Origin: Bacteroidota bacterium
GTDB lineage: Bacteria; Bacteroidota; Ignavibacteria; Kapaibacteriales; UBA2268
DNA: 64,000 nucleotides
Direction: 5' to 3'
Assembly: GCA_024278075.1 (NCBI GenBank)
Contig: JAJRTW010000155.1
Location: 4,191-68,190, forward strand
The position numbers and the translations under genes were made by a program. The notes below the pieces were generated by a model. That model was not told the origin of the DNA. It did no database searches and saw only the letters and a list, made by a program, of their open reading frames with translations. Positions 8,419-55,043 of the stretch are shown here, piece after piece (the stretch's first letter is position 1; the number at the start of each line of letters is the position of its first letter).

Positions 8419-8572
8419 CAGAACTATTCAATAGCCACGTGCTTTAGCTCGTGGAAGCCCAAATCCCCGAATTAAAACTCGGAGCTATATATTCCTTCAT
8501 ACTTCAATAGCCATGTGCTTTAGCTCGTGGAAGCCCAAATCCCCGAATTAAAACTCGGGGCTATAAATCTTT
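8419..8572. repeat. Tandem direct repeat, 2 x ~77 bp
   Basis: Units 'ttcaatagcca[ct]gtgctttagctcgtggaagcccaaatccccgaattaaaactcgg[ag]gctata' at ~8428 and ~8505 are ~97% identical. Each has an inverted repeat ccacg...cgtgg. Confidence 0.8.
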
Positions 8573-8605: not shown

Positions 8606-10297
8606 ATGAAAAAAATATTAAAATATAAACTAACTCTGCTTATTATAATATGTTCTTGCGCCAATCCGCAGCCACCGTCGGGCGGCCCGGCAGATAAAAC
8701 TCCACCGGAAATAGTGGCGTTCGAACCTGCCAGCGGAGTTCTGAACTTCAAAGGCGGTTCGATCATTATCGAATTTAGTAAATATATGAACAAAAGCAAG
8801 GTAAGGGAAAATATTTTTATCTCGCCGTCGGCCAAACTTGATTTCGATTGGAGTGGCAAAGAGCTTGGAATTGAATTTCTTGAAGAACTCAGCCCGGACA
8901 AGACTTATGCCCTGACGCTGGGCACTGGCTACTCGGATTTGAAAGGCAATAAACCCACCGAAGCCTTCACTTTGATTTTTTCGACCGGAAATGTAATTGA
9001 TTCCGGAACCATTAAAGGAAAATTATTCGACGCCACGCCTTCCGGCATATATATCTATGCCTACAAAATCGACAGCATGAACGTTGATACTTTCGACATC
9101 AGGAACAACAAACCGAATTATTGGACGCAGATTGGCACGAATGGCAATTTCCTGATTATGGCTTTGAAGGATGGCACTTATAGGTTAATAGCTATCCGCG
9201 ACCAGTTCAAGGACGAGATTTACTCCGAGGGGGCTGATGCGTTTGGCGCCCCCGTCCGGGATGTTACAGTAATAAATGGCTCCGCACCGGAAGTTAAATT
9301 AAAAATCGGACCGCCGATAGACATTATTAAGCCTCAGTTATACACTGCATATTCAACATCTGACAGGTCAATAGAAGTTTCCTTCAGCGAAGCAATCGAC
9401 CCTTCGTCATTATCGAAGAACTCATTTGTTATAAGTGATTCAGCCGGAAGCCAACTCCGCGCCATAAATTCCCTGTATCCGGATATTGAGAATAAAAGCA
9501 AAATAATAGTTTTCGCTTCCGGGCCGCTGGATACCGCTGTCAAGTGGAAGTTAACAGCCTTGGCCAATGCGGAGAACTGCCCGCGGGACACTATAGGGTT
9601 CTGCATAGACGACACTGCAAATACGGCTTATTTTTTCAGTGACACGTCTATTGATTCTACTCTTCCCTCTGTCATATCATCGCCTTTCCCGGATAGCACT
9701 TATGATTTGCCGATCAATCAACAATTCGAATTTATTTTTAATATGAGCGTAGCCGAAGAGAATTTTAAGGACAGAATCAAATTAATAAAGTCAGCAGATT
9801 CTTCAACGGCCGGCTTTGACATCAATTTTATCAGTGGCAATGATTTTGAATTAATTCCTTAGGAGTTTCTCGAGCCTGACACCTGGTACCGGGTTGAACT
9901 GCGGCTGGACTCACTTGCGGGCGGCAACGGAATGCTGGCAAAGGATTCGTTAATCAACTTGAACTTCCTGACACAGGATCAAAGAAAGTACAGTCAAATA
10001 GGCGGCACCTTGGCGGACTCATCTCTTTGCGACGGCCCTTATTATGTTATACTTAAGGCAAAAAGCGGAAATAAGGCAATCACCGCAAAAGTAGCCGACG
10101 GTGGCAGCTGGGAATTCAAAGCATTACCGGTCGGGATTTATAGTTTCGAAATATTTTGCGATTCCGATGGCAATGGCATCTATAGCTTTGGCAATGCCAG
10201 CCCTTTTGAATTCGGCGAAAGATTTTCCGCAATCGAGCAGGAAATCGAAGTAAAAGCCAGGTGGGAAGTCGAGAACATCAAATTAATCTTTAAATAA
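8606..10297 (+). pseudogene. Ig-like (SbsA-type) domain lipoprotein, interrupted by an in-frame amber codon at 9860-9862
   Basis: ORFs 8606..9862 and 9932..10297 are in the same frame, separated only by a TAG. Translation reads sensibly through it (..NDFELIP*EFLEPDTWYRVELRLD..). Lipoprotein signal 'LLIIICSCANP' and 'PADKTPPEIV' Ig-like N-domain. Confidence 0.5.
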
Positions 10298-10339
10298 TTC
10301 TAATATGAATACAGTAGTGCATCATCTCATAATAAATTA

Positions 10340-10825
10340 ATATTTAACGTTCCGTCAGTTGTTACAACTGACGAATGACGAGAGTTTCTATATTGCCAGT
10401 TGTAACAACTGGCGAAAGCAAAGGTGTAACAAAGCTGGTGGCTTTGATACAAGGGTTAACATTGCAATTGTTTCTGAGATGCCGTATTAGTGTCCGGTTA
10501 AAATGCAGCCAATTTGTGATAATCGAAGTAATAAGCTCCTTTTTGGCCTATATTGTGCTATAGTGGATACAATTTTGAAATTAGCAAAAATAATATCTAA
10601 ACGTGTCATTCCGGACTTATTGAGCCCAGCGAATTCCCGTATTGGGAAGTAATCCCGCTATCGGGAACCCGGAATCCATCTCAATATGGCCACATAGCCC
10701 GCACATACTGGATTCTTCACTACGCCACAAGTGGCTTGCCATAGATGGCTTTGTTCAGAATGACAAGTCATAATATTCAGGTACATATTCTGAGTGTTTC
10801 TCTTTTTTTACCGGACACTACTAAT
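10340..10825. repeat. Composite intergenic repeat element copy E2 (contains inverted copy of the E1 185-bp module)
   Basis: Hairpins 'cagttgttacaactgacg' (10356) and 'ccagttgtaacaactggcg' (10398). A B-start fragment 'tattagtgtccggttaaaatg' is at 10486. The reverse complement of the E1 module spans 10611-10822. Flanked by the 12-bp direct repeat 'ctaatatgaata' at 10301 and 10821. Confidence 0.65.
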
Positions 10826-20959: not shown

Positions 20960-22009
20960 ATGAGTTCTTTATTCAAAAAAGTTTTGAAATACGGCCTGAC
21001 CGCCACTATAGCTTTTGCCTCGATATACTTAGCTTTCATGGATGTTCACATCGAGGACCTTTGGGATGCGCTGGCGGGCGCCGACTATAAATGGGCGTTA
21101 GTGCCAATCCCAATAATGCTGATTTCGCACTGGATAAGGGCATTGCGATGGAAAACCATGCTAAGCCCGATAATGAAGGTTAACTCTGTCTGGAACCTGT
21201 TCTCGGCTGTTATGGTTGGCTATTTATTCAACAATATTTTCCCGCGTGGCGGTGAATTCATAAGGCCTTATGTTTATAGCAAGCGAGAGAAAGTATCATA
21301 TTCCAGCACTTTCGCCACAATAATTGTCGAAAGGGTGATCGATGTAATTTCGCTGGCGTTTCTGTTCGGCCTGGCTTTTATAATACTGCATGATAAAATC
21401 AGCAAAGCCCTTACTATCGACATCAGCCCGACTAATATTGTTATTCTTGTAGCCCTGTTTTTTGTTGTTATTGTCGCCGGTTTCTACCCTCCTGTGATTG
21501 ATTTTTTTATGAGGAAGCTGATTAAGCCTTTTTCGGAAATCACATATTTGAGGTTAAGAGAATTATTCGCTAAGTTCCGCAAGGGTTTTGCAATAATCAA
21601 AAAGCCGTCGCAATATTCCAGGCTGATAATTGAATCTTTACTTATATGGTTTTGCTACGCACTGCCAATGTATTTCATGTTCTTCTGCTTCGGTTTCCAG
21701 GAGAATGCACATCTGGGGCTAATTGATGCGGTGCTGCTTGTAATAGTAGCTGGAATAGCAGCAACGATAGGGCTTACCCCCGGTTCCATAGGCGTCTACC
21801 ATGTTATGATCCGGACATCTATGGTCGACCTCTACGGCATCAGCCCCGAGCATGCCCTGGCCTATGCAACCGTAACCCATGCGATTAATTATTTTGTTCA
21901 GGTTGGATTCGGAGCTTTATTCCTGATGCGCGAGGATATAACGAAAATTCCGTTCAGCGAGAAATTCATGCATATTGACGATGAAGTACAGGCCAATACA
22001 ACTAAATAA
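20960..22009 (+). CDS. UPF0104/flippase-like (LPG-synthase TM-domain) membrane protein
   Basis: 349 aa, multi-TM, with N-terminal 'ATIAFASIYLAF...HWIRALRWKTML'. Confidence 0.5.
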   Translation: MSSLFKKVLKYGLTATIAFASIYLAFMDVHIEDLWDALAGADYKWALVPIPIMLISHWIRALRWKTMLSPIMKVNSVWNLFSAVMVGYLFNNIFPRGGEFIRPYVYSKREKVSYSSTFATIIVERVIDVISLAFLFGLAFIILHDKISKALTIDISPTNIVILVALFFVVIVAGFYPPVIDFFMRKLIKPFSEITYLRLRELFAKFRKGFAIIKKPSQYSRLIIESLLIWFCYALPMYFMFFCFGFQENAHLGLIDAVLLVIVAGIAATIGLTPGSIGVYHVMIRTSMVDLYGISPEHALAYATVTHAINYFVQVGFGALFLMREDITKIPFSEKFMHIDDEVQANTTK

Positions 22010-22022
22010 ATACAGTGAGATA

Positions 22023-23189
22023 ATGAATCAATTAAGATTAAAGAGACACGCAGGCCGCCGCCTCGGCTCGGGGCATCTTTGGGTGTTCAGCAATGAATTG
22101 GACAGTTTGCCGGATTTTCCGCCGGGCAAGCTTGTGGAGGTTATCGACAGCCGCGGCCAAAGCTATGGCACGGGGTTTTATAACCCCAACAGCTTAATTT
22201 CCGTCAGGCTGCTGTTCACCGATGAAAAAATTGATATTGATTTCTTTGCCGGCAGAATAAACAAAGCGAACCTGCACAGAAATGTGTTTTTCCCGGATGA
22301 GCAATGCTATAGAGTCGTTTTCGGTGAATCGGACTTCCTGCCCGGGTTAATAGTAGATAAATATGATGATTATTTGGCAGTACAATATTTATCGGCAGGA
22401 ATTGAAATTAGAAAGGATACGGTTATCGAAGCCCTGCTGAAGGTGTTTCCGAATACCATTGGCATAATTGAAAAAAATCAGTCCCGCCTAAGGGCGATTG
22501 AAGGCCTGGAATCATACGATAATACAGCGTATGGCACAATTCCAGATGAAATTAATATATCGGAATATGATATTAAATTGTCAATATCCCTGCTGGCCGG
22601 CCAGAAGACCGGATACTACCTTGACCAGAAATTGAACAGAAAGTACATTAGAATAATTTCACGTGGAAAAAATGTACTTGACTGCTTTTGCAACCAGGGA
22701 GGCTTTGCCCTTAATGCAGCTAAGGCCGGAGCCGGAAACGTATTAGGCATCGATTCCTCGGAGGAGGTTTTGCATAGGGCAAGAGCAAACGCCGGGCTAA
22801 ACGGGTTTGATGCCATAGATTTTGCTAAGGCCGACGTTTTTGATTTCCTCGAGAAAGAAATATCGAACGGTTCCGAATGGGACGTCGTGGTTCTCGACCC
22901 GCCTGCATTTGCAAAGAATAAGAAGTCCGTACCAACGGCGCTTGCCGGATACCGAAGGCTAAACAAATTGGCATTGCAAATTATACCGACGGGCGGCTAC
23001 CTGGCCACTTCAAGCTGCTCCCAGCATATATTGGAAGATAGGTTTGCGGGCGAGGTTCAGTCCGCTGCCTCAAGAACCGGCCGGCAGCTAAGGCTTATCC
23101 ACCGCGGCACTCAGCCGCCCGACCACCCAATACTATCATCAATGCCCGAAACAGCATATTTGAAATTTTTTGTTTATCAGGTGATTTAG
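22023..23189 (+). CDS. rlmI: 23S rRNA m5C methyltransferase, RlmI-like (PUA + class I MTase)
   Basis: N-terminal 'LKRHAGRRLGSGHLWVFSNEL'; MTase motifs 'DCFCNQGGFALNAA', 'GIDSS' and 'VVLDPPAF'. The start was set at the internal ATG after the upstream stop. Confidence 0.65.
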   Translation: MNQLRLKRHAGRRLGSGHLWVFSNELDSLPDFPPGKLVEVIDSRGQSYGTGFYNPNSLISVRLLFTDEKIDIDFFAGRINKANLHRNVFFPDEQCYRVVFGESDFLPGLIVDKYDDYLAVQYLSAGIEIRKDTVIEALLKVFPNTIGIIEKNQSRLRAIEGLESYDNTAYGTIPDEINISEYDIKLSISLLAGQKTGYYLDQKLNRKYIRIISRGKNVLDCFCNQGGFALNAAKAGAGNVLGIDSSEEVLHRARANAGLNGFDAIDFAKADVFDFLEKEISNGSEWDVVVLDPPAFAKNKKSVPTALAGYRRLNKLALQIIPTGGYLATSSCSQHILEDRFAGEVQSAASRTGRQLRLIHRGTQPPDHPILSSMPETAYLKFFVYQVI

Positions 23190-37400: not shown

Positions 37401-37741
37401 ACGAGGAAAACGACGGTAATGGAATGAGCAGGGAAGAACATATGAAGAAGAAGAAAAGGCGTATCGATCATAATAAATTTGCCATTCTGTTTATGGTAAT
37501 CAATACGTTGTTTCTGCTTTATGTGATTGGATATACACATATTTCTTGGGATATGCTGGCATCGAAGATGTTCAACGTTTCGTTATATACGGTAATATTG
37601 TTTCTAATGATGAGATTTTTTAAGTCAAAATATGCAAGTACGACAAATAAGCTATGGGCCAATCCTATTGCTGTTGGTGTTTTCTTTATGGGCTATGCCA
37701 TTGGCCTCGGCCTCATACTCGCTGGCGGATCGAGCGTGTGA
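37397..37741 (+). CDS. Holin-like 3-TM small membrane protein
   Basis: 114 aa with three TM helices, sitting immediately before the CHAP peptidase. Confidence 0.4.
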   Translation: MNEENDGNGMSREEHMKKKKRRIDHNKFAILFMVINTLFLLYVIGYTHISWDMLASKMFNVSLYTVILFLMMRFFKSKYASTTNKLWANPIAVGVFFMGYAIGLGLILAGGSSV

Positions 37742-38327
37742 CAAGGCTCTTGAGTTCGACGGCATTAGAGAAACACCTGGCAAACAGAATACATCCCCTA
37801 TTATTGATAAAATGATTAAGCGGGGCGGCGGCCGGATTGGCTGGCCATGGTGCATGTACTTCGTTTACTATGTAGTAGATGAAGTATGCAGCACGCTCGA
37901 AATCGACAATCCATTGAAAAGAACGGGCAGTGTGGCCGCACAGCTTCATTTTGCCGAGCAGAATTATAGGAAAGGCCTGAAAGTTATCTACCCTTTTGAA
38001 TCGTATGCGAAATTCAAATCAATGAAAGGGGACATTCTGATCTTCAGGAAAGGGGGCAGCCTGAAGAAAAGCAGCCTGAAGGGACGATGGAACGGACATA
38101 CGGCTTTTGTTGTTAGTCAGATTAATGACAATCTGCTTGCTACGATTGAGGGCAACACTAACAAAAGAGGCTCCCGTGAGGGCGACGGAGTATATCGCAA
38201 AACACGTAAGATCAAATCGACAGGCCGGTTGAAATTAGGAGCGATTGTCAGAATGGAAATTACGATAGAAATTACGGTAGATATACCGGATTATGTGAAA
38301 ATACCATGTGATTTAGTGAGGAAATGA
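37632..38327 (+). CDS. Secreted CHAP-domain peptidoglycan hydrolase (endolysin candidate)
   Basis: Signal peptide MQVRQISYGPILLLLVFSLWAMPLASA. CHAP motifs are 'GWPWCMYFVYY' (Cys) and 'NGHTAFVV...IEGN' (His). The annotated start overlaps the holin-like ORF by 110 nt; an alternative start is at 37695. Confidence 0.55.
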   Translation: MQVRQISYGPILLLLVFSLWAMPLASASYSLADRACDKALEFDGIRETPGKQNTSPIIDKMIKRGGGRIGWPWCMYFVYYVVDEVCSTLEIDNPLKRTGSVAAQLHFAEQNYRKGLKVIYPFESYAKFKSMKGDILIFRKGGSLKKSSLKGRWNGHTAFVVSQINDNLLATIEGNTNKRGSREGDGVYRKTRKIKSTGRLKLGAIVRMEITIEITVDIPDYVKIPCDLVRK

Positions 38328-38328
38328 A

Positions 38329-39894
38329 ATGATAACAACACCACAAACACCGAGCTTTAATTTAGTACGCTACGCACCGGACGTGGACGATACCCTCATC
38401 GCCGACGGGTATATATTGAAATGGGACGACGCTAACAGCAAGTTCGTCTTTGGTGCCGAATCTTCGGGACTGCCTGCGGGTAGTTCAGGCGAGACTTTAT
38501 ACCATGATGGTTCTGATTGGGTAGTAAATAGTCTTTTCTTAAATAATGGGAGTCAAATTGGGGTTGGTGTTGCTCCATCATCAATAGGGTTCCAAATAGT
38601 TTATGATAATTCTAACTGGGATGCATTAAAAGCACATAATATTTCTGGTAGAGCAATTCAGGGGGTCACAGAGAATGGTTATGGTCTTGTTGGTTCAATA
38701 GGCAATGCTGGCACTGGTTCAGCAATTCTATCTTATATAAATTCAGTAAATGCAGTTGACTTTCTTGAATGTCGCTATAATCTTGTTCCTGAAATTCGTG
38801 CAAGAATAGCGGCCGATGGATCATTCTATTCTCTCCCCCTCAAAACACAGCCATCCCATCCGGGGGCATACAAATCATTATTCGTGGACACTTCCACCGG
38901 CCAAATCTATTCGCAGGATGTGCCGGTCGGCGGTGGGGGTGATCTGTTAGCTGACGGCACAATCCCGCTAACGGCGAATTGGGACGCAGGCGGATTCAAA
39001 ATCACGGCACAGCAGTTGGAATCTGACATTGTCACAGGCACAGCCCCGTTCGTTGTGGCTTCGACAACGGTAGTAACGAACTTAAATGCAGATACGGTCG
39101 ATGGCGTTGAGGGTGCGGATATAAACGCTAACACAACTCATAGGGGATTAACCAATAACCCTCATTCAGTCACAAAGGCACAAGTTAGTTTAACGAATGT
39201 AACTGATGAAGCACAAATAGCAAAATCTCTCGGCACGACTAAAGGCGATATTATCGTATTTACAGGGTCAGCAATTCCGGCACGTGAGGCTATCGGTGCA
39301 AACGATACGGTTCTAACAGCCGATTCGGCACAGGCAAGCGGAATAAAATGGGCTGCTCCTGCAGGCGGCGGGGCGTTCACAGCTTTAACCACTGTAAATT
39401 CAGATGTTGAAAATACGGCTTCTGCAATAGACGCTGTTAAGATTACGATACCAGCCGATGATTGGGCAGATGGTGAAACGATATTTATGATGTTTAGAAT
39501 AACAACATTGCAAAATTCTGGGGCGTCAATAAGTTTAAGAGAAATATTCAAATATGGTTCACAGGACTTATTCAACGAGGCTGCTAATGTGAGTAGCAGC
39601 ACATTTGAGGGGAGTTCAAGTAGATACTTTATTGCAACCAGAGTTGGAAGTACAATTTGGTATTCAACACAATCATTAACGAGCGAAGCATTTACGGGCT
39701 TTAGGATTCAAGATAAAATTCCTAACGATTATTATTCCCTTGATAATTCAAGTGTGAGGCAAGGCCGCCGCACAGTTCAAGTTTTCAACTCGCAAAAAGA
39801 TTTGGTGCTTAATTTGCAATGGGGTTCGGCAAATGCGAATGCTTATGTAAGAATCGAACAATCTCACGCTTACAAAATCGGAGGCACGGTATAA
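38329..39894 (+). CDS. Tail-fibre / receptor-binding-like protein
   Basis: 521 aa, Gly/Ser/Thr-rich and beta-rich. The N-terminus 'TPSFNLVRYAPDVDDTLIADGYILKWDDANSKFVFG' is reminiscent of phage fibre adaptors. Tentative. Confidence 0.3.
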   Translation: MITTPQTPSFNLVRYAPDVDDTLIADGYILKWDDANSKFVFGAESSGLPAGSSGETLYHDGSDWVVNSLFLNNGSQIGVGVAPSSIGFQIVYDNSNWDALKAHNISGRAIQGVTENGYGLVGSIGNAGTGSAILSYINSVNAVDFLECRYNLVPEIRARIAADGSFYSLPLKTQPSHPGAYKSLFVDTSTGQIYSQDVPVGGGGDLLADGTIPLTANWDAGGFKITAQQLESDIVTGTAPFVVASTTVVTNLNADTVDGVEGADINANTTHRGLTNNPHSVTKAQVSLTNVTDEAQIAKSLGTTKGDIIVFTGSAIPAREAIGANDTVLTADSAQASGIKWAAPAGGGAFTALTTVNSDVENTASAIDAVKITIPADDWADGETIFMMFRITTLQNSGASISLREIFKYGSQDLFNEAANVSSSTFEGSSSRYFIATRVGSTIWYSTQSLTSEAFTGFRIQDKIPNDYYSLDNSSVRQGRRTVQVFNSQKDLVLNLQWGSANANAYVRIEQSHAYKIGGTV

Positions 39895-40380: not shown

Positions 40381-40689
40381 ATGGCATTAAGCAATTTAAC
40401 AGGAGAAGAAATGCAAAACACAGCAAAAACCAACGGCACGGCATTCACCGAAGAAGAAATCAAAAGAATGCAAGAGCAAATTGAAGATGAAAAGAAAAAA
40501 GAGGAAGAACGGGCAACGGAATGCTGGGATAAAATTCAAGCTATCCTCGAAGAATACGATCTGGAATTAACAACATTCGCCGGGCGGCAGCACATAGCGG
40601 AAATCACTAAGCAAATGATACTCGACCCGACGATACCGGGTGCGATGCTTGACATTAAAATCGGGAAAAAACAGGCGGTCAAAGCATGA
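40381..40689 (+). CDS. Hypothetical acidic protein
   Basis: 102 aa. Confidence 0.35.
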   Translation: MALSNLTGEEMQNTAKTNGTAFTEEEIKRMQEQIEDEKKKEEERATECWDKIQAILEEYDLELTTFAGRQHIAEITKQMILDPTIPGAMLDIKIGKKQAVKA

Positions 40690-40741
40690 GAACGGCTATA
40701 TTATTCAGGACTTATCAGATAAAATTAATAGGAGATTAGAC

Positions 40742-41038
40742 ATGAATATAGTAAATGAATTAAGAGATGAAATTGTAAAAATAGCGAAATCAAAACGATT
40801 AGGCATCCGCTTTACTGAAGCAAGCACGAGCGGTGCCGGCTATGGAAAAACATCTAAGATATTATTGTTCCCAATTAATGATCCACCCTGGGGTGTCCGA
40901 AGCAAAAGTGTTATAAAATACTGGAAATCCAACCAGGGTAAAAATGTAGGTACAACTAAAAATTCTGAACGATACAGAATATATCAAAAAGTAAAAATAT
41001 TCTTAAAAAGATATAAACCATCGAAAAAAACAAAATAG
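40742..41038 (+). CDS. Hypothetical basic protein
   Basis: The start was moved to the ATG preceded by the SD 'taggagatt'. Confidence 0.35.
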   Translation: MNIVNELRDEIVKIAKSKRLGIRFTEASTSGAGYGKTSKILLFPINDPPWGVRSKSVIKYWKSNQGKNVGTTKNSERYRIYQKVKIFLKRYKPSKKTK

Positions 41039-41049
41039 GCAGCAAAAGT

Positions 41050-41808
41050 ATGAGAACGGCTATATTATTCAGGGCTTATGACATGGATCAATCTACGTTG
41101 CTCCATTATTCGCAGTTGCAGAAGCAATGCAAGCACGTCCACATGCTCTACGACGCTACGGACAAACAGCCGGTTCACACAACGCTTGGTATGAATTTCA
41201 CCGAAGACGATTACCGCAAATCGGGTTATCCGTTGGCCACACTAAAGCAGATAGACGAAATGCCATCTGCACCAAAAAGTTCGCAACTGATATATTACAA
41301 CCCTGAAATATCTGTGCTATTGTTTTATAAGCAAAATCCGGGTTATGATTATTATCTGTCGCTCGAAAGTGATGTTATGTTCAATGGCGACTGGAACACG
41401 TTTCTTGATGCCATTGCGAAAGATGACAGCGATTTACTGGGGACATACACTACCCACGGGTGGGAGCGTGATCCCGAAACATTGAATTTCGATGTAGCGA
41501 ACAAACACAAAGAAATTATGTTCGGGCCGGTTCAGAGATATTCAAATAAGATGCTTGAAACTTTACATAAAGAGTATAAATCCGGCAAGCACGGTTTCTA
41601 TGAAGCGGTTGTACCGACAATAGCATTGATAAACGGGCTTTCGGTAAGCAATTTCGGGAAAGCAACTGGCAGGCAGTTCTACCACCCATTTACAATGTGC
41701 GGACATTACGTCCCTGCCTGGCAGGACATGATCGACATGGATAAATGGAAAAATCATCTTTTCCACCCGGTTAAAGACGAATTTTATAAGAATGCGGAGG
41801 CGGCCTAA
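41050..41808 (+). CDS. Hypothetical protein
   Basis: 252 aa. Its first 24 nt 'atgagaacggctatattattcagg' are duplicated at 40686. Confidence 0.4.
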   Translation: MRTAILFRAYDMDQSTLLHYSQLQKQCKHVHMLYDATDKQPVHTTLGMNFTEDDYRKSGYPLATLKQIDEMPSAPKSSQLIYYNPEISVLLFYKQNPGYDYYLSLESDVMFNGDWNTFLDAIAKDDSDLLGTYTTHGWERDPETLNFDVANKHKEIMFGPVQRYSNKMLETLHKEYKSGKHGFYEAVVPTIALINGLSVSNFGKATGRQFYHPFTMCGHYVPAWQDMIDMDKWKNHLFHPVKDEFYKNAEAA

Positions 41809-42254
41809 TGGACACGACAATAATAGCAGCATTAATATCGGGTTTCTTTGCCATTGTTACAATTGCCTGGGCATTGCTCGAAAGGAGCAAAAATAAAACA
41901 TTAACAACACAAATTGAGGACAGCAAATCTACTCAAGGAGAAATATTGGACAAGCTCTCAATGCTCAAAAACGACCTGGCAAAACAGATAAAAGAAATTC
42001 AAACTGAATTCAATAAGGAACTCAAAAGGATTGAAGAAAAAACGGCAACGAACACAGAAAAACTTGTCAAAGAATTGAATAATCATATCAACGAAATATT
42101 AAGTAAGATCAATTTGGTTCATATCAAAACAGTCGAAGATAAGAAAGAACTGGAGGCGATGAAAGAGGATGTAAAACACTTGAAATCACTTTATAAAGAA
42201 GTTGCATCGGTTAAAGTAAGCATTGCTCAATTACGGGAGAAATTGAATAAATGA
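41808..42254 (+). CDS. N-terminal TM plus coiled-coil protein
   Basis: 148 aa; TM 'IIAALISGFFAIVTIAWALL' followed by a heptad-rich region. Confidence 0.4.
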   Translation: MDTTIIAALISGFFAIVTIAWALLERSKNKTLTTQIEDSKSTQGEILDKLSMLKNDLAKQIKEIQTEFNKELKRIEEKTATNTEKLVKELNNHINEILSKINLVHIKTVEDKKELEAMKEDVKHLKSLYKEVASVKVSIAQLREKLNK

Positions 42255-42955
42255 GGATTACCAAGTTCGGATATGAAATGATTAAGCAGGCTTCGGCAGA
42301 CGTAACGCCGGAGAATATATGCTATGAAGTCACATCAAACCGTGGCGGCTGTATTGACCAGTTGAAATGCGAATACCTCGGCAATGTGGATTATTGTTAT
42401 TCGGACAGGGTCAGCAACGAGGCGTATTGTGCTATTGTACTGTGGACATGGGGAATGCGTGCTATTCGTGCATTAGGCTACTCTGACGAATTATGGATGA
42501 AAAATAAAACAATGGGTGCGTTGGATATGCTGAACAGGGCAAGGAAAACTGGTATTGAAATCACAACCGACCCACAGCCAGGCGACGGCTTCTACCGTAA
42601 AAGCGGTGCCGCTGGTTCATCCGGCCACACAGGGCTTGTGGTTGCCGTAGAACCGGAGAAGAAAATATTCCACACCATCGAGGGCAATAACGTATTTTAC
42701 TACCTCGGCAAGCGATACGAGGGAGTATGGGGCTGGAATTATCCATACGGATACATAGCAAAGAAGGGGTTCAAGTTTATGAAATATCAGAATATCTTCG
42801 ATAATAAATTAATCAGTTACAATATGCAAACTAATGAAGCCGGGCTGACGGTTGCAGGCGATTCACACCAGTTCAATATGGCCAGTATGGGAACATACGC
42901 AGGGATCGCATTACTCGCAGGTGCCGGGATAACTAAATATATGGGGAAATGGTAA
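42251..42955 (+). CDS. CHAP/NlpC-P60-like peptidase domain protein (second copy)
   Basis: 'SGHTGLVVAV...FHTIEGNN' parallels 'NGHTAFVVSQ...LATIEGNTN' of the 37632 gene, and 'EAYCAIVLWTW' is the Cys-motif candidate. No signal peptide, so it is possibly virion-associated. Confidence 0.45.
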   Translation: MRITKFGYEMIKQASADVTPENICYEVTSNRGGCIDQLKCEYLGNVDYCYSDRVSNEAYCAIVLWTWGMRAIRALGYSDELWMKNKTMGALDMLNRARKTGIEITTDPQPGDGFYRKSGAAGSSGHTGLVVAVEPEKKIFHTIEGNNVFYYLGKRYEGVWGWNYPYGYIAKKGFKFMKYQNIFDNKLISYNMQTNEAGLTVAGDSHQFNMASMGTYAGIALLAGAGITKYMGKW

Positions 42956-44583: not shown

Positions 44584-45852
44584 ATGGTCGAATCATGCGG
44601 ATTAAGTGATTCCTTCGTTGAGGACAAATCCAAACAGATTAACAGGGCCTTGAAAATGCTCAAGGCCCCGTTCTTCCGGGACTGTTCGAGACTTGGAAAC
44701 ACACGGAATAAAAAGCAATTCAGAATAACCTGGGGACGATTCACCGGTTCTTGTTCATTAGGGCAAAAAACACGGTGGGAATCGGAAAAGAATATCACTA
44801 AATGGCTCAAGAAGAATCTTGGCGTGTCATTGATAAAACTGAAGCGGAACCCAATCGGCTACGCCCAGGAAGTTATCAACAGGCGGAAGAAGAAAACCGC
44901 CGACGAAAAAGCTAAAGTTCTGGCCACCAGACAAGCGGCTAAAGCAAAGGTGTCTAAGCCGTCTAAAAAGAAAATGCCGAGGGTGTATCTGAAGACTACG
45001 GAAATGCGAAGACTAAAACGATTGAAGCCGTATAAATCGCAGGCCAGAAATGATACTCTTGTTGAATATCTGGATAAGAATTTCGGCAAACTGAAGAAGG
45101 CGTTCTACGAATACTACCGTGAAAAACCGAATTCAACGATTGACTTTATGGCTTTTGTTGTGCGTGAATTTGGCAAGAAAGGTTATGTTAAAAGTCCAGA
45201 GAAAATGTCATCAAGAGAAAAAGACCGAATCGCTGAAGAAGATAAATTAATAGCTAAACTGGAAAAGAAGCACAAAAAGGAAGACAAATCACCACCAAAA
45301 AAAGCGAAAGCAAAAACTACTAAGAGAATGCCTATCGCTAACAAGGTAGAGGTTGGGGATTATGTTGATTTTGGTAAAAAAGGGAAATGGTATGTTCCTA
45401 ATCCAGATTTTTCGGCAACGCACATGCAAGGTGTCTCTAATAAGTCCGCAAGATATACAGGTGGGGCGGAATACGAGATATTGCATAGGAAGCATGTCAA
45501 AAGAATAATTGAGAAGGGCGATGAAAATGTTTGGCAAGTACAGATGGCCAAGAAAGAAAAAGCAGCAGATGCCAAAACGAAGCAATCTAAAAAAGGTGGA
45601 ACCACACCAACATCAAAGCCGGCTGCAAAGGATAACTGCCCGAAAAAGGAAATACCGAAAGCGAAAGTGAAAAAAGCTGCACCAAAACCAGAAGCGAAAA
45701 CTACTAAAAAGGCAAAGCCAATGAAAATAGTAACGAAACCGACAGCGATTGCCCCTGTGAAGAAAATATCCGACGAGGATAAAAAGGCACAGCAGGCAAT
45801 AAATCAAATAGCAGAATTACAGAAGATGTTGGAAAAATCACTTGCGAGTTAA
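44584..45852 (+). CDS. Highly basic Lys-rich protein (histone/H1-like DNA-binding candidate)
   Basis: 422 aa with long K/A/P-rich stretches (KKAKAKTTKR.., AKDNCPKKEIPKAKVKKAAPKPEAKTTKKAKP). Confidence 0.45.
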   Translation: MVESCGLSDSFVEDKSKQINRALKMLKAPFFRDCSRLGNTRNKKQFRITWGRFTGSCSLGQKTRWESEKNITKWLKKNLGVSLIKLKRNPIGYAQEVINRRKKKTADEKAKVLATRQAAKAKVSKPSKKKMPRVYLKTTEMRRLKRLKPYKSQARNDTLVEYLDKNFGKLKKAFYEYYREKPNSTIDFMAFVVREFGKKGYVKSPEKMSSREKDRIAEEDKLIAKLEKKHKKEDKSPPKKAKAKTTKRMPIANKVEVGDYVDFGKKGKWYVPNPDFSATHMQGVSNKSARYTGGAEYEILHRKHVKRIIEKGDENVWQVQMAKKEKAADAKTKQSKKGGTTPTSKPAAKDNCPKKEIPKAKVKKAAPKPEAKTTKKAKPMKIVTKPTAIAPVKKISDEDKKAQQAINQIAELQKMLEKSLAS

Positions 45853-45950: not shown

Positions 45951-48900
45951 TTGAGCAACTGGAACCGCAAGTGGCCTCGCAAAGCCGATACAAAACCATC
46001 ATTAATGCGTGTCCTGAAAAGAATTCATAAACATTATATAGGATATGGTGCAGAGGCATTCAAATATAGTTTAGACGAATATATTAGGCTCTACTTGGAT
46101 TATAGGTTCCAGGGAAAGGGAATCAATAACTATAAAGGTGATATCGAATCAAGAGAATATATTGTAATGTATTACGGACTTGATACGCTCCCTGAGCCGT
46201 ATGCTTCATTGGTAAACGATTTTATTGGTCAAAGCAAGAATATATCATCTCCAACAATAAATTCAGGCAAGGACATGACATTAATGGAACAAGCACAGCA
46301 CAACTTCGAGAAAATAACGAAGCTGTATTCATTGGCCAAAGAGAAAGGGAAAATCAAACCTGATATGATCTCCGCTCTTGACAATGGATTTGAGTCTATT
46401 GGTGACTTGATTGGTGTGGTATATGAACCGGTAAATATTATAAACCCAGATAAATTAAAGAAAATCAACTATGCACCCGGCAATACGACAACAATTGAAA
46501 CGCCAAACGAATCCATAAAAGCAAAGTATGTGTTAGTGCCACTCATGGACTTAATAGAATCTAATGATCCGTATTCGTTTAAAAGGAACCCGGATTATCC
46601 TGAATTTTGCCAAACCAGGAATTATGCACAGACGAAAGCCGAACAAAATAAGGTAATTAGCTTTTCCAAAGATTTCAAACCGGAACATCTGATTAATAAT
46701 TCGCCGGACGCCACAACAGGCCCACCAATTATCACAAAAGAAGGGATCGTGCTTGGCGGAAATGGACGGGCAATGATTTTAAAGCGAATTCATCATAAAA
46801 AAGGTTTTGATGAGTATTCTCAATTATTAGAACGGAATTTAGAATCATTCGGATTTAGTCCAGGCTGTGCGGCCCACATGATTCTTGCCCGCATGATTGA
46901 TATTGACTATAAAAAATGTGCCGCATATAGTAATAAACTTAATCAATCGACTATGCAGGAACGGGACGCAGTGACACTCGGTATCGGCTATGCGAAGCAA
47001 ATTAGTGAACAGGATTATACAACACTCGCAAAAATATTTGAGAATTCCGAAGAATCAACTTTTTCGGCCACACTGAATAATGCCGTTTCGCAACGACAAA
47101 TCATTTCCGTACTGGAGAAGTCAGGGCTGATTACTCCACAAAACCGTACTCAATGGATTAGCGAAGGCACCGGCGAACTTTCCAAGCAAGGCCGTGCGAT
47201 ATTAGAATCCGTTCTTATCGGCTATATTATGCCGGATAAGGCATTGATGGAAGCGGCACAGAACTATACAAATAAATTAGTCAAGTCACTGCCATTATTG
47301 ATACAAATTCACAATATGTCCGGCACGTGGAATATAGTGCCGGATATAAAAACGGCTATCCGGGAAGAAGTTAAACGACGGCGTGCAGGTGCGACAAAGG
47401 CGGATTATTTACGGCAGGATGATATGTTCGCAAGTGGCAAATCGGATATTGTGCCGGAGAATGTTCAATTAGTTTGGAAAGCCCTGGACGGTGGGGTATT
47501 GCAATTCCGTGATTTCCTCAAGAAATACATTCGCACGGCAAACAATGAAATGTCCGGCGGCTCGATGTTCGGCGAATCCAAAGTAAAATCAATCGACGTT
47601 CTTCGCAAACACATTAGCAATACAGGACTTGGTGATAATATGTCATTAATGCAACAAGCACAGCAGCAGTTCGAGAAAATAACGAAGCTGTATTCATTGG
47701 CCAAAGAGAAGGGGAAAATCAAGTCTGATATGATCTCCGCTCTTGACAATGGATTTAAGTCTATCGGCGAATTGATTGGTGTGGTGTATGAGCCGGTGGT
47801 AAAGACAAGGACACGGGAGTGGGCTTTGATAATGAGTATTCTGGACACACATGAATTTTGCATGCATAAATCAAATTCTTCACAAAGAGAACGTAAAGAA
47901 TGCAGAGAATTAAACGAGTCCCGACAAAAGGAATTGTTAATACTAACATTGACAAAACCAATTAAGCCCATAATGGATATAACAGATTTTAGTAAAATTG
48001 AGGAAACAGTATATAATATATTATATGCCCGCAGACCTAATACTATAATATCACAGTTAAAGAAATATAGGATAAATCAAAAGCTAACTGATGAAATGAT
48101 TCTTGACGTTACGGCTATATATATGTCCGGTGAAACAAGCCGAAATCAGCCGATATTCCATCGCAAAGTAGATGCTTTAATGAAGCAAAAGAAGAAGAAT
48201 ATTAGACTATGGAATAAGATGAGAGCTTATCTCCCTACTCTTGGTACGACCGATAATACATTATGGGACATAGCATTTAAGGAAAAAGGCGATATAGTAT
48301 CGAGACATGGAGAGGAGATAATCTTTTCACCAACTTATGAAGAACTTATTTATTGGATATATGAATATAGTGATATAAAGCCAAAAGCTGAGACAGTTCC
48401 CAAACCACAGGAAAAGAAAACGGAGACTAAAACAAATAACAACAAATTCCCGTTCCCTGGCGATGCAATAAAAAAGACTGAATTTGATAAATGGTTCGAG
48501 ACTGCCGAAAGGAACTACAAAGCTAAAGATTTAAGTTATTCTGCATTCCAGGAATTGGATGAAATGTTCGCTCCCATAGGTGAAGACGACCAGAAGGCCA
48601 TTGTTCAATATCTGTTCGCCAATGCACCGGACAAACTTAAGAAATTAGTAATGTATGGTAAAAAAGCAGCAACCACTGGTTGGTGGGAAGCTGATAATAT
48701 GAGTAAAAATGCACCTCCGACAAGTGATTTCGACGCAGGAAAAGATATTCCTGCTGAATTCCAAAAACATAGACGAATCAAAATTGTTGACTATGAATTG
48801 AAACCGGACAATGAAAATCTTTGGGGAATTATAGGAACAAGCATCAGTACAGATGTTCACCGCCCCCCAATGAATGGGGCTGAGTTTAATGATAAAGGTG

Positions 48901-50381
48901 TCGTAACAACTGACAGCTACCGTATCGCATTCATCCCGGGCAAAGTATCGAAAGTCAAAGAAGCAAAAATATTCAAAGAGACTAATTCTTATGGCCGAGA
49001 AAAGATTCATCCCGTCTATCACCCTGACGGCAGCTTTATTGATGAAACATTTGCACCCTGGGAAAGTGTTATTCCTAATATATCAACTACGATTGCAACG
49101 GCTAATACTCAGGAATTATTAAACCAATTATATACTTATAAATATTGGTTCCGTTGGGTATATCGAATTGGAAATGGCTATACAGCACCTGTGGTTATTA
49201 ATTTTGATGGCAATAAAAGAATGTCATTCAACCCGGATTATATGCTTGATGCTGTTACATTTATGGCAAAGTTAGGAGTTGAAACAATCTATTTCCAGGT
49301 TGACATGAGCAAACCTGAAGATGCACCTACTAAGCCATTAATTCTAATAGGTAATAAGAATGCTACCGCAAGTGATTGCAAAGTCCCGTTCCATTTAATT
49401 ATGCCTATACGATTAGATAATGAAGATTATCCCGATACACTGATTTATACCCGTATAGGTGCTGAACCTGGGAATGTAGGGCTGTCTGATGAACTATCAA
49501 TGAATGCCGATCCTTTGCAAATAGCATTATTCGACGATCAGAGAACGCCCGGCAACATCAGTAGCCTCGGCGACGACATTCAACCAAACGACATTCAGCC
49601 GATTGAAGAATTACAACCATTGCAACCGATTACTCCGATTGCGACTACGGGCGGGGATCAAGCAGCCTCAATAAACAACAGCGAAGTCCCCGACCCGGAT
49701 TATATTCCGTTCGACGATCCGAGGCATAATGTACTGCCTGAATTAGCAACGGCACAGGATATATCCAGTCAGGTATTTAGTAGCAAACCGTTGAAACTTG
49801 GCCGCACCCGAATATTGTTCGACAATATGTTGGATGATGCTAATATGTTAATCTACGGGCCAAGAGGCGAAGGCAAAACTACGTTTGCATTGCAATACAT
49901 AAACGATCTATCGAAAAACGGCGATGTATTATATGTAATGACCGAAGAGGGTATAAGCACACGATTGAAAGAACGGCTCCGGTGGAATAAAATAAATGCA
50001 AAAAATATCAGCTTCCTCGAAACAAGAGACTTCCACATCCTGAGAGAATATCTCGATTCTGGCAATTATAAATTTGTAGTGATTGATTCGCATAACAAAA
50101 TCGAAGGGGCTACTCAAAAACAAATCATCGAATTGCTTGATGAATATTCTAATATATCTTTTGTTATCATTGCACGGATGGACAAAGAAGCAAAAATATA
50201 CAGAGGTGATTCAGATTGGGAATATGACGTTGATACTGTTGTGAAACTCGAAAAAGGGAATGCAACAACTATTAAACACAGAGACGGCCCGTCAGGTAAG
50301 ATAATGCGGGTACTCCCAAGCAAAGCATGGGGACAATTAAATAATTCGCAATTAATAAATTCAAATGTTAAATCAGCATAA
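45951..50381 (+). CDS. Giant 1476-aa multidomain protein: ParB-like N-region (tentative), intragenic duplicated segment, C-terminal RecA/DnaB-like P-loop ATPase
   Basis: Walker A 'LIYGPRGEGKTTFA' and Walker B 'KFVVIDSHNK'. 'ITKEGIVLGGNGRAMILKRI' resembles the ParB GxxRxxA motif. A 155-nt near-identical duplication lies at 46270-46445 and 47634-47810. Confidence 0.55.
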   Translation: MSNWNRKWPRKADTKPSLMRVLKRIHKHYIGYGAEAFKYSLDEYIRLYLDYRFQGKGINNYKGDIESREYIVMYYGLDTLPEPYASLVNDFIGQSKNISSPTINSGKDMTLMEQAQHNFEKITKLYSLAKEKGKIKPDMISALDNGFESIGDLIGVVYEPVNIINPDKLKKINYAPGNTTTIETPNESIKAKYVLVPLMDLIESNDPYSFKRNPDYPEFCQTRNYAQTKAEQNKVISFSKDFKPEHLINNSPDATTGPPIITKEGIVLGGNGRAMILKRIHHKKGFDEYSQLLERNLESFGFSPGCAAHMILARMIDIDYKKCAAYSNKLNQSTMQERDAVTLGIGYAKQISEQDYTTLAKIFENSEESTFSATLNNAVSQRQIISVLEKSGLITPQNRTQWISEGTGELSKQGRAILESVLIGYIMPDKALMEAAQNYTNKLVKSLPLLIQIHNMSGTWNIVPDIKTAIREEVKRRRAGATKADYLRQDDMFASGKSDIVPENVQLVWKALDGGVLQFRDFLKKYIRTANNEMSGGSMFGESKVKSIDVLRKHISNTGLGDNMSLMQQAQQQFEKITKLYSLAKEKGKIKSDMISALDNGFKSIGELIGVVYEPVVKTRTREWALIMSILDTHEFCMHKSNSSQRERKECRELNESRQKELLILTLTKPIKPIMDITDFSKIEETVYNILYARRPNTIISQLKKYRINQKLTDEMILDVTAIYMSGETSRNQPIFHRKVDALMKQKKKNIRLWNKMRAYLPTLGTTDNTLWDIAFKEKGDIVSRHGEEIIFSPTYEELIYWIYEYSDIKPKAETVPKPQEKKTETKTNNNKFPFPGDAIKKTEFDKWFETAERNYKAKDLSYSAFQELDEMFAPIGEDDQKAIVQYLFANAPDKLKKLVMYGKKAATTGWWEADNMSKNAPPTSDFDAGKDIPAEFQKHRRIKIVDYELKPDNENLWGIIGTSISTDVHRPPMNGAEFNDKGVVTTDSYRIAFIPGKVSKVKEAKIFKETNSYGREKIHPVYHPDGSFIDETFAPWESVIPNISTTIATANTQELLNQLYTYKYWFRWVYRIGNGYTAPVVINFDGNKRMSFNPDYMLDAVTFMAKLGVETIYFQVDMSKPEDAPTKPLILIGNKNATASDCKVPFHLIMPIRLDNEDYPDTLIYTRIGAEPGNVGLSDELSMNADPLQIALFDDQRTPGNISSLGDDIQPNDIQPIEELQPLQPITPIATTGGDQAASINNSEVPDPDYIPFDDPRHNVLPELATAQDISSQVFSSKPLKLGRTRILFDNMLDDANMLIYGPRGEGKTTFALQYINDLSKNGDVLYVMTEEGISTRLKERLRWNKINAKNISFLETRDFHILREYLDSGNYKFVVIDSHNKIEGATQKQIIELLDEYSNISFVIIARMDKEAKIYRGDSDWEYDVDTVVKLEKGNATTIKHRDGPSGKIMRVLPSKAWGQLNNSQLINSNVKSA

Positions 50382-50393
50382 GGAGGGCATATC

Positions 50394-50675
50394 ATGCCAG
50401 CAACAGCGAAAGTATCCACAAAGAAAAATGTCCGAATTTCCGGGCTGACAAAAAAGGATAAAGTTCAGGAAATAAGTGTGCCGGGACATGGCTCATTTAA
50501 AAAAGTCAAAGCCCGTAAATCTTCATCGGCTTCCAAACGCAAGGCATCGGCTAAGAAAAGCACTCCCTGGACACCAGCCAAACGCAAGGCCGCAGCCAAA
50601 AAAGCAGCAGCCACCAGGAAGCGTAATGCACGAAAGAATAGGGCATCGAGCCGTAATAAGATGTTATACGGATAA
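50394..50675 (+). CDS. Small histone H1/AlgP-like K/A-rich basic protein
   Basis: 93 aa 'KRKASAKKSTPWTPAKRKAAAKKAAATRKRNARKNRA'. SD 'aaggaggg' upstream. Confidence 0.5.
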   Translation: MPATAKVSTKKNVRISGLTKKDKVQEISVPGHGSFKKVKARKSSSASKRKASAKKSTPWTPAKRKAAAKKAAATRKRNARKNRASSRNKMLYG

Positions 50676-50722
50676 TTCTTTCAATTTCAATCTATGGGGG
50701 GCATAAACGCCCCCACTTTATT

Positions 50723-51160
50723 ATGCAACACTTCCATTTCAATATGACTGAGGAGGAGGCGAAATTTTATTTTCTCAAACTCTCCAAACGATTGCACCCG
50801 GACAAAAATAACGCCCGGGATGCTAATAGCCAGTTCGATGAAATGAAAAAGGAATATGACGACTGGCTCGCCATTAAAAGGCACTGGAAGACATTAAAAA
50901 AACATTTCGGCACACCGCAAGTGATTATTAGAGAAGTAGTAAAGAAAGTGCCTGTTTATTATCCGCAATATATCGAACGGCAACCACAGCCGATTGATCC
51001 ACGCATAATGAATACCATTGAGAAATTGCCGGAAACGCTCGACAAAGGCATTGAAGCGGTCGGTGCCGCTATGAATTTGGTCTCGGGGCTAACCAAAGCA
51101 TTCAAACAAGGCGGGCAATATTACAGGCAGGTGAAAAAGGCAAATAATGGCCGACTATAG
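50723..51160 (+). CDS. J-domain (DnaJ-like) protein
   Basis: 'FYFLKLSKRLHPDKNNARDANSQFDEMKKEYD' carries the HPD motif. Confidence 0.6.
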   Translation: MQHFHFNMTEEEAKFYFLKLSKRLHPDKNNARDANSQFDEMKKEYDDWLAIKRHWKTLKKHFGTPQVIIREVVKKVPVYYPQYIERQPQPIDPRIMNTIEKLPETLDKGIEAVGAAMNLVSGLTKAFKQGGQYYRQVKKANNGRL

Positions 51161-53434: not shown

Positions 53435-53500
53435 AACTTTTTTTTGGAATGCAGGCAGGATTTGAACCTGCGTAACGCCGCCCGTTCTGCATTCGAGGGG
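53435..53500 (-). repeat. tRNA 3'-end-like element A (T-arm 'gcaggttcaaatcctgc' + acceptor-like inverted repeat gaatgcag/ctgcattc)
   Basis: Minus strand: gaatgcag-aacgggcggcgttac-GCAGG-TTCAAAT-CCTGC-ctgcattcc. It is too short (~48 nt) to be a tRNA. About 90% identical to the element at 54978-55043. Confidence 0.6.
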
Positions 53501-54977: not shown

Positions 54978-55043
54978 TGAACTCGATTTGGGATGCAGCC
55001 AAGATTTGAACCTGCGTAACGCCGACCGCTCTGCATTCTGTAG
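54978..55043 (-). repeat. tRNA 3'-end-like element B (copy of element A)
   Basis: 'gggatgcagccaagatttgaacctgcgtaacgccgaccgctctgcattc' is about 90% identical to element A, with the same 'gaact' leader. Confidence 0.6.

Follow-up and report, generated by a model that had tools for sequence, protein, structure and literature searches.

A polyvalent-type protein of a prophage-like element combines ParB-like, beta-clamp-like and RadA-like modules and has its ParB module bracketed by a direct repeat

A stretch of 64,000 nucleotides (nt) from a Bacteroidota bacterium of the order Kapaibacteriales (contig JAJRTW010000155.1, positions 4,191 to 68,190; hereafter the window) contains a prophage-like block in which one large gene encodes a protein of 1476 amino acids (aa). 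Judged by its predicted domains, this protein belongs to the polyvalent class of Iyer et al. 2017 (PMC5512222). It combines a DdrB-like ParB module, a beta-clamp-like module and a C-terminal RadA-like ATPase in a single chain, and the ParB module lies between two in-frame copies of a 158-nt direct repeat. We consider it probable, with some reserve, that this is a phage polyvalent protein that is made late, carried in the virion and released with the phage DNA, and that the repeats are a scar of domain shuffling. A prediction made earlier from the letters of this DNA (the original prediction) had noticed the duplication and the ATPase; it overlooked that the repeats bracket the ParB module, the clamp-like module at aa 930-1166 and the membership in the polyvalent class.

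Polyvalent proteins carry at least two distinct effector or DNA-processing domains, and three are predicted here within 1476 aa (ParB-like, clamp-like and RecA-fold ATPase). They are encoded by conjugative elements or by phages and prophages, in the latter typically among the late or structural genes, and the gene under study has such a location, though none of the genes in the window could be recognised as terminase, portal or capsid. Its likeness to the published proteins (PMC5512222) extends to size, to the prophage late region and to the presence of a DdrB-ParB domain and an SMS/RadA-type ATPase. Iyer et al. 2017 assigned DdrB-like ParB domains to polyvalent proteins that are encoded by late phage genes (PMC5512222) and SMS/RadA domains to Bacteroidetes polyvalent proteins, mainly those of conjugative elements; the window protein unites both. 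It is set apart from the published members by the clamp-like module, by the 53-aa duplication around the ParB module and by the lack of a metallopeptidase.

Results

The ParB module and its relatives

The N-terminal half of the protein contains the ParB-type domain that the original prediction had placed there. Pfam family PF18763 (ddrB-ParB) matches aa 186-314 (46506-46892; E 1e-16, 61.6 bits vs a cutoff of 27.6) over profile positions 3-118 of 121. The ParB motifs CQTRNY and SPDATTG are accompanied by the active-site-type GGNGR (aa 269-273; 46755-46769), which holds the arginine conserved in the ParB/Srx superfamily and is invariant in a four-sequence alignment (A2). All three motifs named in the original prediction, GGNGRAMIL (aa 269-277; 46755-46781), the Walker A sequence GPRGEGKTT and an hhhhDS-type Walker B (KFVVIDS), are present.

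Relatives of the protein and of its parts were searched for in genome, viral and metagenome collections. The closest homologues, P0002, P0003 and P0004, are 48%, 39% and 36% identical to the window protein. The metagenomic proteins P0003 (1201 aa) and P0004 (1236 aa) share both the ParB module (36-39%) and the C-terminal ATPase (29-33%), and have an N-terminal HExxH zincin (LPD1-like) where the window protein has aa 1-160. Unlike it, they have no clamp-like module and no 53-aa repeat, only short low-complexity linkers. Shuffling of modules is directly visible in the predicted architectures of these relatives, which comprise ParB plus ATPase (P0003 and P0004), clamp plus ATPase with no ParB (P0041) and ParB alone (P0002).

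When phage genomes were searched by tblastn, aa 181-560 matched P1 DdrB, P7 Prt and several proteins annotated as 'DarB-like', 'tail' or hypothetical; megablast of the gene against phage genomes gave no match. The ParB-like module and helical extension of P1 DdrB and P7 Prt align to this same segment with 24% identity (E 5e-6). P1 DdrB has a C-terminal metallopeptidase and no clamp-like or ATPase modules, unlike the window protein, and no DarA/Hdf-type partners were recognised in the window. It is processed, packaged in the head and ejected together with the DNA, within the Dar anti-restriction system (PMC5512222, PMC12810830). The ParB module of phage Piluca belongs to a protein resembling epsilon15 gp16, whose neighbours on either side are gp15-like and gp17-like 'pilot' proteins, and in a Pseudoalteromonas phage it lies within a 4675-aa DarB-like protein. 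The PHROGs match over the ParB region is to a large uncharacterised family.

The beta-clamp-like module

A word-index homologue search with aa 615-1260 returned no relatives. An exhaustive phmmer search of 1.84 billion representatives returned 40 proteins of 300-2495 aa, all of which align to aa 930-1166. The window sequences TTDSYRIAF, FAPWESVIP, MSFNPDYML and HLIMPIRL match motifs conserved across these relatives (alignment A4). Pfam recognises DNA_pol3_beta_2 in 13 of the 40 (best E 2e-14), the N-terminal clamp domain in 5 and the C-terminal clamp domain in 3; the 40 relatives between them also carry ART-PolyVal, LPD1, DarA_C, PBECR5, SNF2, GNAT and topoisomerase domains, among which are hallmarks of polyvalent proteins. 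Clustered at 50% identity, the proteins with this module number at least 40 clusters, and ART, DarA_C or SNF2 modules often accompany it.

The A4 profile matched the Elizabethkingia beta clamp 8dt6 in the PDB (E 1.7e-22, residues 150-374, with deletions), with dozens more DnaN structures behind it, and in a word-index homologue search it returned only one true DnaN. AlphaFold2, given the A4 alignment, produced a model with a mean predicted local distance difference test score (pLDDT) of 78.6 and a predicted template-modelling (TM) score of 0.80. Foldseek listed 50 matches from the PDB, every one of them a beta clamp (prob 1.00, TM about 0.5). In BFVD, the top-ranking entry comes from an uncultured tailed phage and is annotated as 'Large polyvalent protein-associated domain-containing protein' (E 2.6e-12); second is a PolIII-beta-like processivity factor of 217 aa from a Bacillus phage (TM 0.65 on the target). 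From the single sequence of aa 615-1476, AlphaFold gave no usable model (pLDDT 34).

With the window protein alone, none of the three Pfam DNA_pol3_beta models (N, central and C) matched at E <= 1, and its PHROG matches to clamp loader and processivity factor are weak. The similarity to DnaN is at profile level and lies in domains II-III; the module falls short of the three-domain extent of DnaN (about 366 aa) and forms only part of a 1476-aa chain. As modelled, it shares the clamp fold with about two shortened domains and is not a DnaN orthologue. The text of Iyer et al. 2017 (PMC5512222) nowhere mentions clamp, DnaN or processivity, and a literature text search linking clamps to polyvalent proteins found nothing.

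The C-terminal ATPase

The original prediction had proposed a C-terminal RecA/DnaB-like ATPase. A P-loop domain of the RecA superfamily is indeed present, and its likeness is to RadA rather than to DnaB, since RadA/Sms proteins are nearest in both the PDB and NCBIfam and the motifs are intact. These are the Walker A motif (aa 1303-1311; 49857-49883), a conserved Glu pair in MTEEG (49938-49952) that aligns with the catalytic Glu of RecA, the Walker B motif (aa 1374-1380; 50070-50090) and a conserved KHRDG motif (50274-50288). The last presumably recalls the KNRFG of RadA.

Pfam placed AAA_24 just above its cutoff at aa 1297-1434, with KaiC, AAA_25 and RecA below theirs, and a PHROGs 'ATPase' family matched aa 1268-1434 (E 9e-22). 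A three-sequence profile matched RadA in the PDB (5lkm/8rxc, E 6e-9 over 139 positions). RecA fusion proteins top that list; we set them aside because their scores are inflated by repetition and regard the single-stretch RadA matches as the meaningful ones. The best NCBIfam match is TIGR00416 (sms; E 1e-7), at 30.6 bits vs an equivalog cutoff of 403.05 and over model positions 86-182 only. Walker A and B are common to the window ATPase and RadA/Sms; the window ATPase lacks the zinc finger and the Lon-like C-terminal domain. Its sequence marks it as a domain relative of RadA/Sms, not an orthologue. A DnaB-like helicase was rejected, as AAA_25 scored 21.6 bits, below its 27-bit cutoff, and no DnaB family matched at E <= 1. 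A search of viral contigs with the ATPase profile (A5) found nothing, and the sole PADLOC match, to mad8 (21 bits, E 5e-5, aa 1289-1361), covers only the generic P-loop.

The direct repeat around the ParB module

The intragenic duplication of the original prediction is real and in frame. Repeat search, MAFFT and BLASTN agree on an ungapped pair of 158 nt with 14 mismatches (91.1% identical; E = 3e-58 by BLASTN within the window), spaced 1365 nt, or 455 codons, from start to start in the same reading frame (Table 1). The limits first proposed, 46270-46445 and 47634-47810, located the pair and reached ~13 nt too far on the 3' side. Unbroken identity between the copies extends over at most 41 nt, and the next-longest runs measure 32 and 14 nt. 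The edges are sharp, with weak protein-level similarity reaching ~3 codons further at the 5' end, and there is no third copy at the DNA or protein level within the window. Outside the repeat, the two halves of the protein show no similarity in local alignments compared with shuffles (z = 0.5 downstream, 0.03 upstream). Because nothing is similar beyond the 53 shared codons, we rejected a larger ancient tandem duplication of which the repeat would be the remnant.

Copy A ends 7 codons before the block of homology with P0002-P0009, and copy B begins at the last conserved motif of that block; therefore, the repeats bracket exactly the ParB module. The limits of the homology block found by tblastn (46452-47669) coincide with the repeat edges. 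The three closest homologues, P0002-P0004 (36-48% identity), do not have the 53-aa segment and contain low-complexity charged linkers in its place, indicating that the repeat is lineage-specific and not an ancient repeat of the family, the outcome that would have told against the original prediction. A 13-aa segment of the repeat, searched as a degenerate DNA pattern, was not found in the genome, viral and metagenome collections. Scans of these collections found no close relatives of the whole protein or of its N-terminal 165 aa, and no length variant of the gene was found in any of them.

The 53 core codons differ by 7 synonymous and 8 non-synonymous changes, giving by the Nei-Gojobori method a synonymous divergence (dS) of 0.255, a non-synonymous divergence (dN) of 0.066 and a dN/dS of 0.26 (Fisher p = 0.014). 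Both copies are under purifying selection, and the peptide is constrained in both places. With a dS of 0.255 the copies are not fresh, and to call the duplication recent, as had been done, was an overstatement (dS and dN/dS are both 0.26). The copies have either coexisted for a long time or had already diverged when they were brought together.

The 53-aa segment is probably helical. A PHROG scan of the repeat peptides alone gave only non-significant matches (E 0.02-0.2). Rfam gave no match to the repeat, and promoter-like and terminator-like sites occur in it at chance level only, which leaves an RNA element or a promoter inside the repeat unsupported. Two antisense open reading frames (ORFs) over the copies share the mirrored repeat translation and have nothing else in their support, in line with the original prediction that they are mirror artefacts.

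Base composition changes along the gene. The G+C content at third codon positions (GC3) is 0.43 from repeat to repeat, including the ParB module, vs 0.33 in the rest of the ORF (p = 4e-4); the late genes of the element have a GC3 of 0.47 +/- 0.05. The steepest change, a fall, lies right past copy B. This pattern agrees with a chimeric origin, by whatever mechanism, in which copy B marks a junction.

Remaining parts of the protein

The public gene call (P0001), the sole database copy with one member, is 1458 aa long and starts at ATG 46005. Since no obvious Shine-Dalgarno sequence precedes this ATG or the TTG at 45951, the N-terminus is uncertain by 18 aa. For aa 1-106 there was no match in Pfam or PHROGs and no relative in metagenome or viral contigs. 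Within aa 617-929, the last ~115 aa are common only to P0011. A WD40-like stretch of 38 aa in this region (aa 748-785; 48192-48305) resembles one WD40 blade and was judged a chance match; its E-values against tandem-WD40 PDB structures and P0010 are misleadingly good because the same 38 aa are matched repeatedly to tandem blades.

Two copies of the motif G-[LM]-[SG]-D are present in the protein vs 0.07 expected, one at aa 559-562 (47625-47636), the end of the ParB module, and one at aa 1177-1180 (49479-49490), just past the clamp-like module. P0002 has two occurrences (aa 826 and 942) vs 0.04 expected, and P0004 has one at aa 855. From its sequence placement, the motif may be a module-boundary mark or a processing site.

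Table 1. Features of the gene and its immediate surroundings (window coordinates)
Feature	Position	Strand	Description
Whole ORF	45951-50381	+	1476 aa from TTG start; polyvalent-type multidomain protein (predicted)
N-terminal region, aa 1-106	45951-46268	+	Orphan; no detectable relatives
Antisense ORF over copy A	46229-46468	-	79 aa; mirror of repeat, no independent support
Repeat copy A	46275-46432	+	aa 109-161, MTLMEQAQHNFEKITKLYSLAKEKGKIKPDMISALDNGFESIGDLIGVVYEPV; ends 7 aa ahead of ParB module
DdrB-like ParB module	46452-47645	+	aa 168-565; conserved in P0002-P0009
Antisense ORF over copy B	47465-47971	-	168 aa; shares mirrored repeat translation, no independent support
Repeat copy B	47640-47797	+	aa 564-616; directly past conserved G-L-G-D closing ParB module
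Region aa 617-929	47799-48737	+	Predicted helical, orphan
Reduced beta-sliding-clamp-like module (DnaN domains II-III)	48738-49448	+	aa 930-1166
Low-complexity linker, aa 1171-1265	49461-49745	+	Acidic, Pro/Gln-rich; second boundary motif G-L-S-D near its start (aa 1177-1180)
RecA-superfamily (RadA/Sms-like) ATPase core	49752-50297	+	Pfam, PHROGs, PDB profile, NCBIfam
Very basic ORF	50394-50675	+	93 aa, 32% Lys plus Arg, 2% acidic; no family match
GC-rich terminator-like hairpin	50697-50714	+	3' of basic 93-aa ORF

Genomic context

The first 22 kb of the window (1-22 kb) are ordinary chromosome, with genes for CheA, CheZ, CheR, an OPT transporter and LPG synthase. From ~23 to ~51 kb the genes point rightward, and most of them could not be annotated; small leftward genes follow up to the window end, and the two sets together make up the prophage-like block (23-64 kb). 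The rightward part includes two lysin-like proteins (37632-38327 and 42251-42955) and a glycosyltransferase, and the polyvalent-type gene is the last large gene of this lysin-like and tail-fibre-like block. At the loci of P0003 and P0004, the homologous gene is likewise the last large one ahead of a strand switch. Several window genes are collinear with the P0002 locus, which encodes SLT and CHAP proteins and a 448-aa protein of tail-fibre character; the last matches 38329-39894 of the window. The hairpin in Table 1 likely ends the rightward late transcription unit that holds the large gene.

Three methyltransferase genes lie in the element or at its edge (21975-23189, 56041-56781 and 59722-60342), a number consistent with heavy investment in evading restriction. 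Two of the three match PHROG DNA methyltransferase families; that at 56041-56781 matches only Pfam Methyltransf_24. Taken together, the lysins, the tail-fibre-like protein, the methyltransferases and the synteny make it likely that the element is a tailed prophage.

The upstream neighbour of the large gene (44584-45852) encodes a basic protein of 422 aa (26% Lys plus Arg) with no family match; this and the basic 93-aa protein on the other side may be DNA-binding proteins or internal components of the virion. Directly beyond the late block, 50723-51160 encodes a 145-aa protein with a J-domain (HPD motif; Pfam DnaJ E 6e-6, just below the cutoff), which from its sequence could possibly be a phage co-chaperone that recruits host DnaK.

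The window holds further repeats. In the prophage-like block, direct repeats of 52 nt (53443-53494 and 54987-55038, 90% identical) and 48 nt (40668-40715 and 41032-41079, 87.5% identical) may be repeated regulatory sites. An inverted repeat of ~335 nt (574-880 and 10489-10822, plus 452-527 and 10339-10413; 78.5% identical) has arms ~9.6 kb apart that flank the che gene cluster region and are both apparently non-coding (ORFs of <65 aa only); it may be a repetitive extragenic element or resemble a miniature inverted-repeat transposable element. A near-tandem direct repeat of 66 nt (8427-8492 and 8503-8568, 95% identical) lies just upstream of a Big_5-domain gene (8606-9862).

Discussion

The repeats could be explained as handles for programmed, contingency-type size variation, with the 1476-aa protein coexisting with a ParB-less form of 1021 aa or with expanded forms. 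They are direct and in frame, they enclose exactly one functional module and they hold a perfectly identical core of 41 nt. The ParB-less clamp and ATPase architecture occurs naturally in P0041, and DdrB-ParB polyvalent proteins are extensively duplicated and rearranged in Helicobacter prophages (Iyer et al., PMC5512222). However, neither a variant nor a close relative turned up in the genome, viral and metagenome collections, a 9% divergence with a dS of 0.26 speaks for an arrangement that has long been stable, and deletion between direct repeats is irreversible. The longest identical run, of 41 nt, also speaks against such a role, as homologous recombination becomes much less frequent when perfect identity extends over less than about 50 nt or when mismatches are present. 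We find such programmed variation distinctly improbable. The repeat might also be a shared N-terminal domain, for example for virion targeting or docking, of two paralogous genes (repeat-ParB and repeat-clamp-ATPase) that became fused. Both copies open at Met codons (DMTLMEQ and NMSLMQQ) about where the nucleotide similarity begins, both are under purifying selection, and both weakly match the N-terminal part of 62-81-aa PHROG families with no known function (E 0.02-0.2). These matches are non-significant, however, no free-standing protein with the 53-aa segment occurs in the searched collections, and the ParB module of the homologues is internal, not N-terminal, so that we regard a fusion of this kind as unlikely. 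That the whole arrangement is an assembly artefact, through a mis-join or collapsed paralogues, is hardly conceivable. Nothing specific speaks for it beyond what appears to be a single source contig of 68.9 kb with one database member, whereas the frame is continuous over 1476 codons across both copies, the copies differ at 14 sites of which about half are synonymous, and the flanking ParB homology is collinear with the homologues.

Other alternatives concern the function of the protein. All three modules come from DNA-metabolism families, short two-domain PolIII-beta-like processivity factors exist in phages, and the weak PHROG matches are to clamp loader and processivity factor; the modules might therefore cooperate in a phage replication, partition or recombination protein that is not packaged. 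Against this, the gene stands in the rightward lysin and tail-fibre block and not among the small, early-type leftward genes, the ParB and clamp-like relatives occur in polyvalent or ejection-type proteins, and the Pfam scan gave no DnaB, primase or polymerase signature. A non-packaged role is, in our view, doubtful, and the replication initiator of the original prediction is disfavoured by this same context. A prophage-encoded anti-phage defence NTPase, the other candidate role that context and PADLOC disfavour, is highly unlikely. A large P-loop protein in a prophage and a weak PADLOC match to mad8 over 70 P-loop residues would suit it, but that match is limited to the generic P-loop, no partner genes of a known system are present, and the characteristic domains are of the kind found in proteins injected for attack.

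Of the roles in the original prediction, a packaged or ejected protein is the one that the evidence favours, and by analogy the context would suit an effector that the virion delivers and that handles DNA or counters restriction. Several points weigh against a virion-carried polyvalent protein with a shuffling scar. No terminase, portal or capsid was recognised in the window with PHROGs, Pfam, NCBIfam, PDB sequences or phage tblastn, and neighbours of 516, 471, 387 and 521 aa that were tested for these identities gave no match. About 25 rightward genes (23335-44320) matched nothing in PHROGs, Pfam, NCBIfam, PDB sequences or 50,697 phage genomes; together with the missing terminase, portal and capsid, this indicates that the element is a very poorly sampled prophage type. 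The metallopeptidase domain present in P1 DdrB and P0002-P0004, which Iyer et al. 2017 proposed to serve self-processing (PMC5512222), is absent from the protein and from the rest of the window. We infer packaging solely from gene position and by analogy with P1 DdrB and epsilon15-like ejection proteins, and the ParB, clamp-like and ATPase activities are predicted. Copy A has no clear GC3 step, making the compositional support for an insertion one-sided, and one genome is too little to show in which direction and by which mechanism the rearrangement went.

On the favoured reading, of a late protein carried in the virion, the modules would act on the incoming DNA after ejection. The ParB domain would bind or nick DNA in a nucleoside triphosphate-dependent manner, the clamp-like module would hold DNA or engage partners of the host clamp, and the RadA-like ATPase would assemble into rings and translocate DNA or drive branch migration. 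Jointly, they might help the DNA to circularise or recombine, or might protect it against restriction, as the Dar system of P1 does. The 158-nt repeats would mark where a recombination event attached the ParB module, at a shared segment, to a backbone of N-terminus, clamp and ATPase, and both copies would have been retained since for a role of the peptide at either site. Deletion by RecA or a phage recombinase, a rare event, would excise exactly the ParB module in frame and leave, irreversibly, a protein of 1021 aa.

Two more far-reaching readings, which we offer tentatively and think rather unlikely, are that the clamp-like module is a recurrent, so far undiscussed building block of injected polyvalent proteins that acts as a clamp mimic, coupled here to a RadA-like motor and a ParB-like enzyme, and that the ParB module is a removable or insertable cassette. 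As a mimic, the module may capture host clamp-binding proteins or poison the host clamp at DNA entry. As bounds of a cassette, the repeats may allow recombination-based reshuffling of anti-defence modules within one gene.

Phage polyvalent proteins probably come into contact with host defences before any other protein of the phage, and almost none have been studied beyond P1. The presence of ParB-like, clamp-like and RadA-like modules in one chain points to active handling of the entering DNA and not to simple inhibition of restriction. Many large phage proteins contain members of the clamp-like family, which the founding survey of the class does not include. Current ideas are not overturned by this protein, which represents a new architecture within the known polyvalent class; the duplicated segment that still flags the edge of one of its modules gives a rare snapshot of mosaic assembly.

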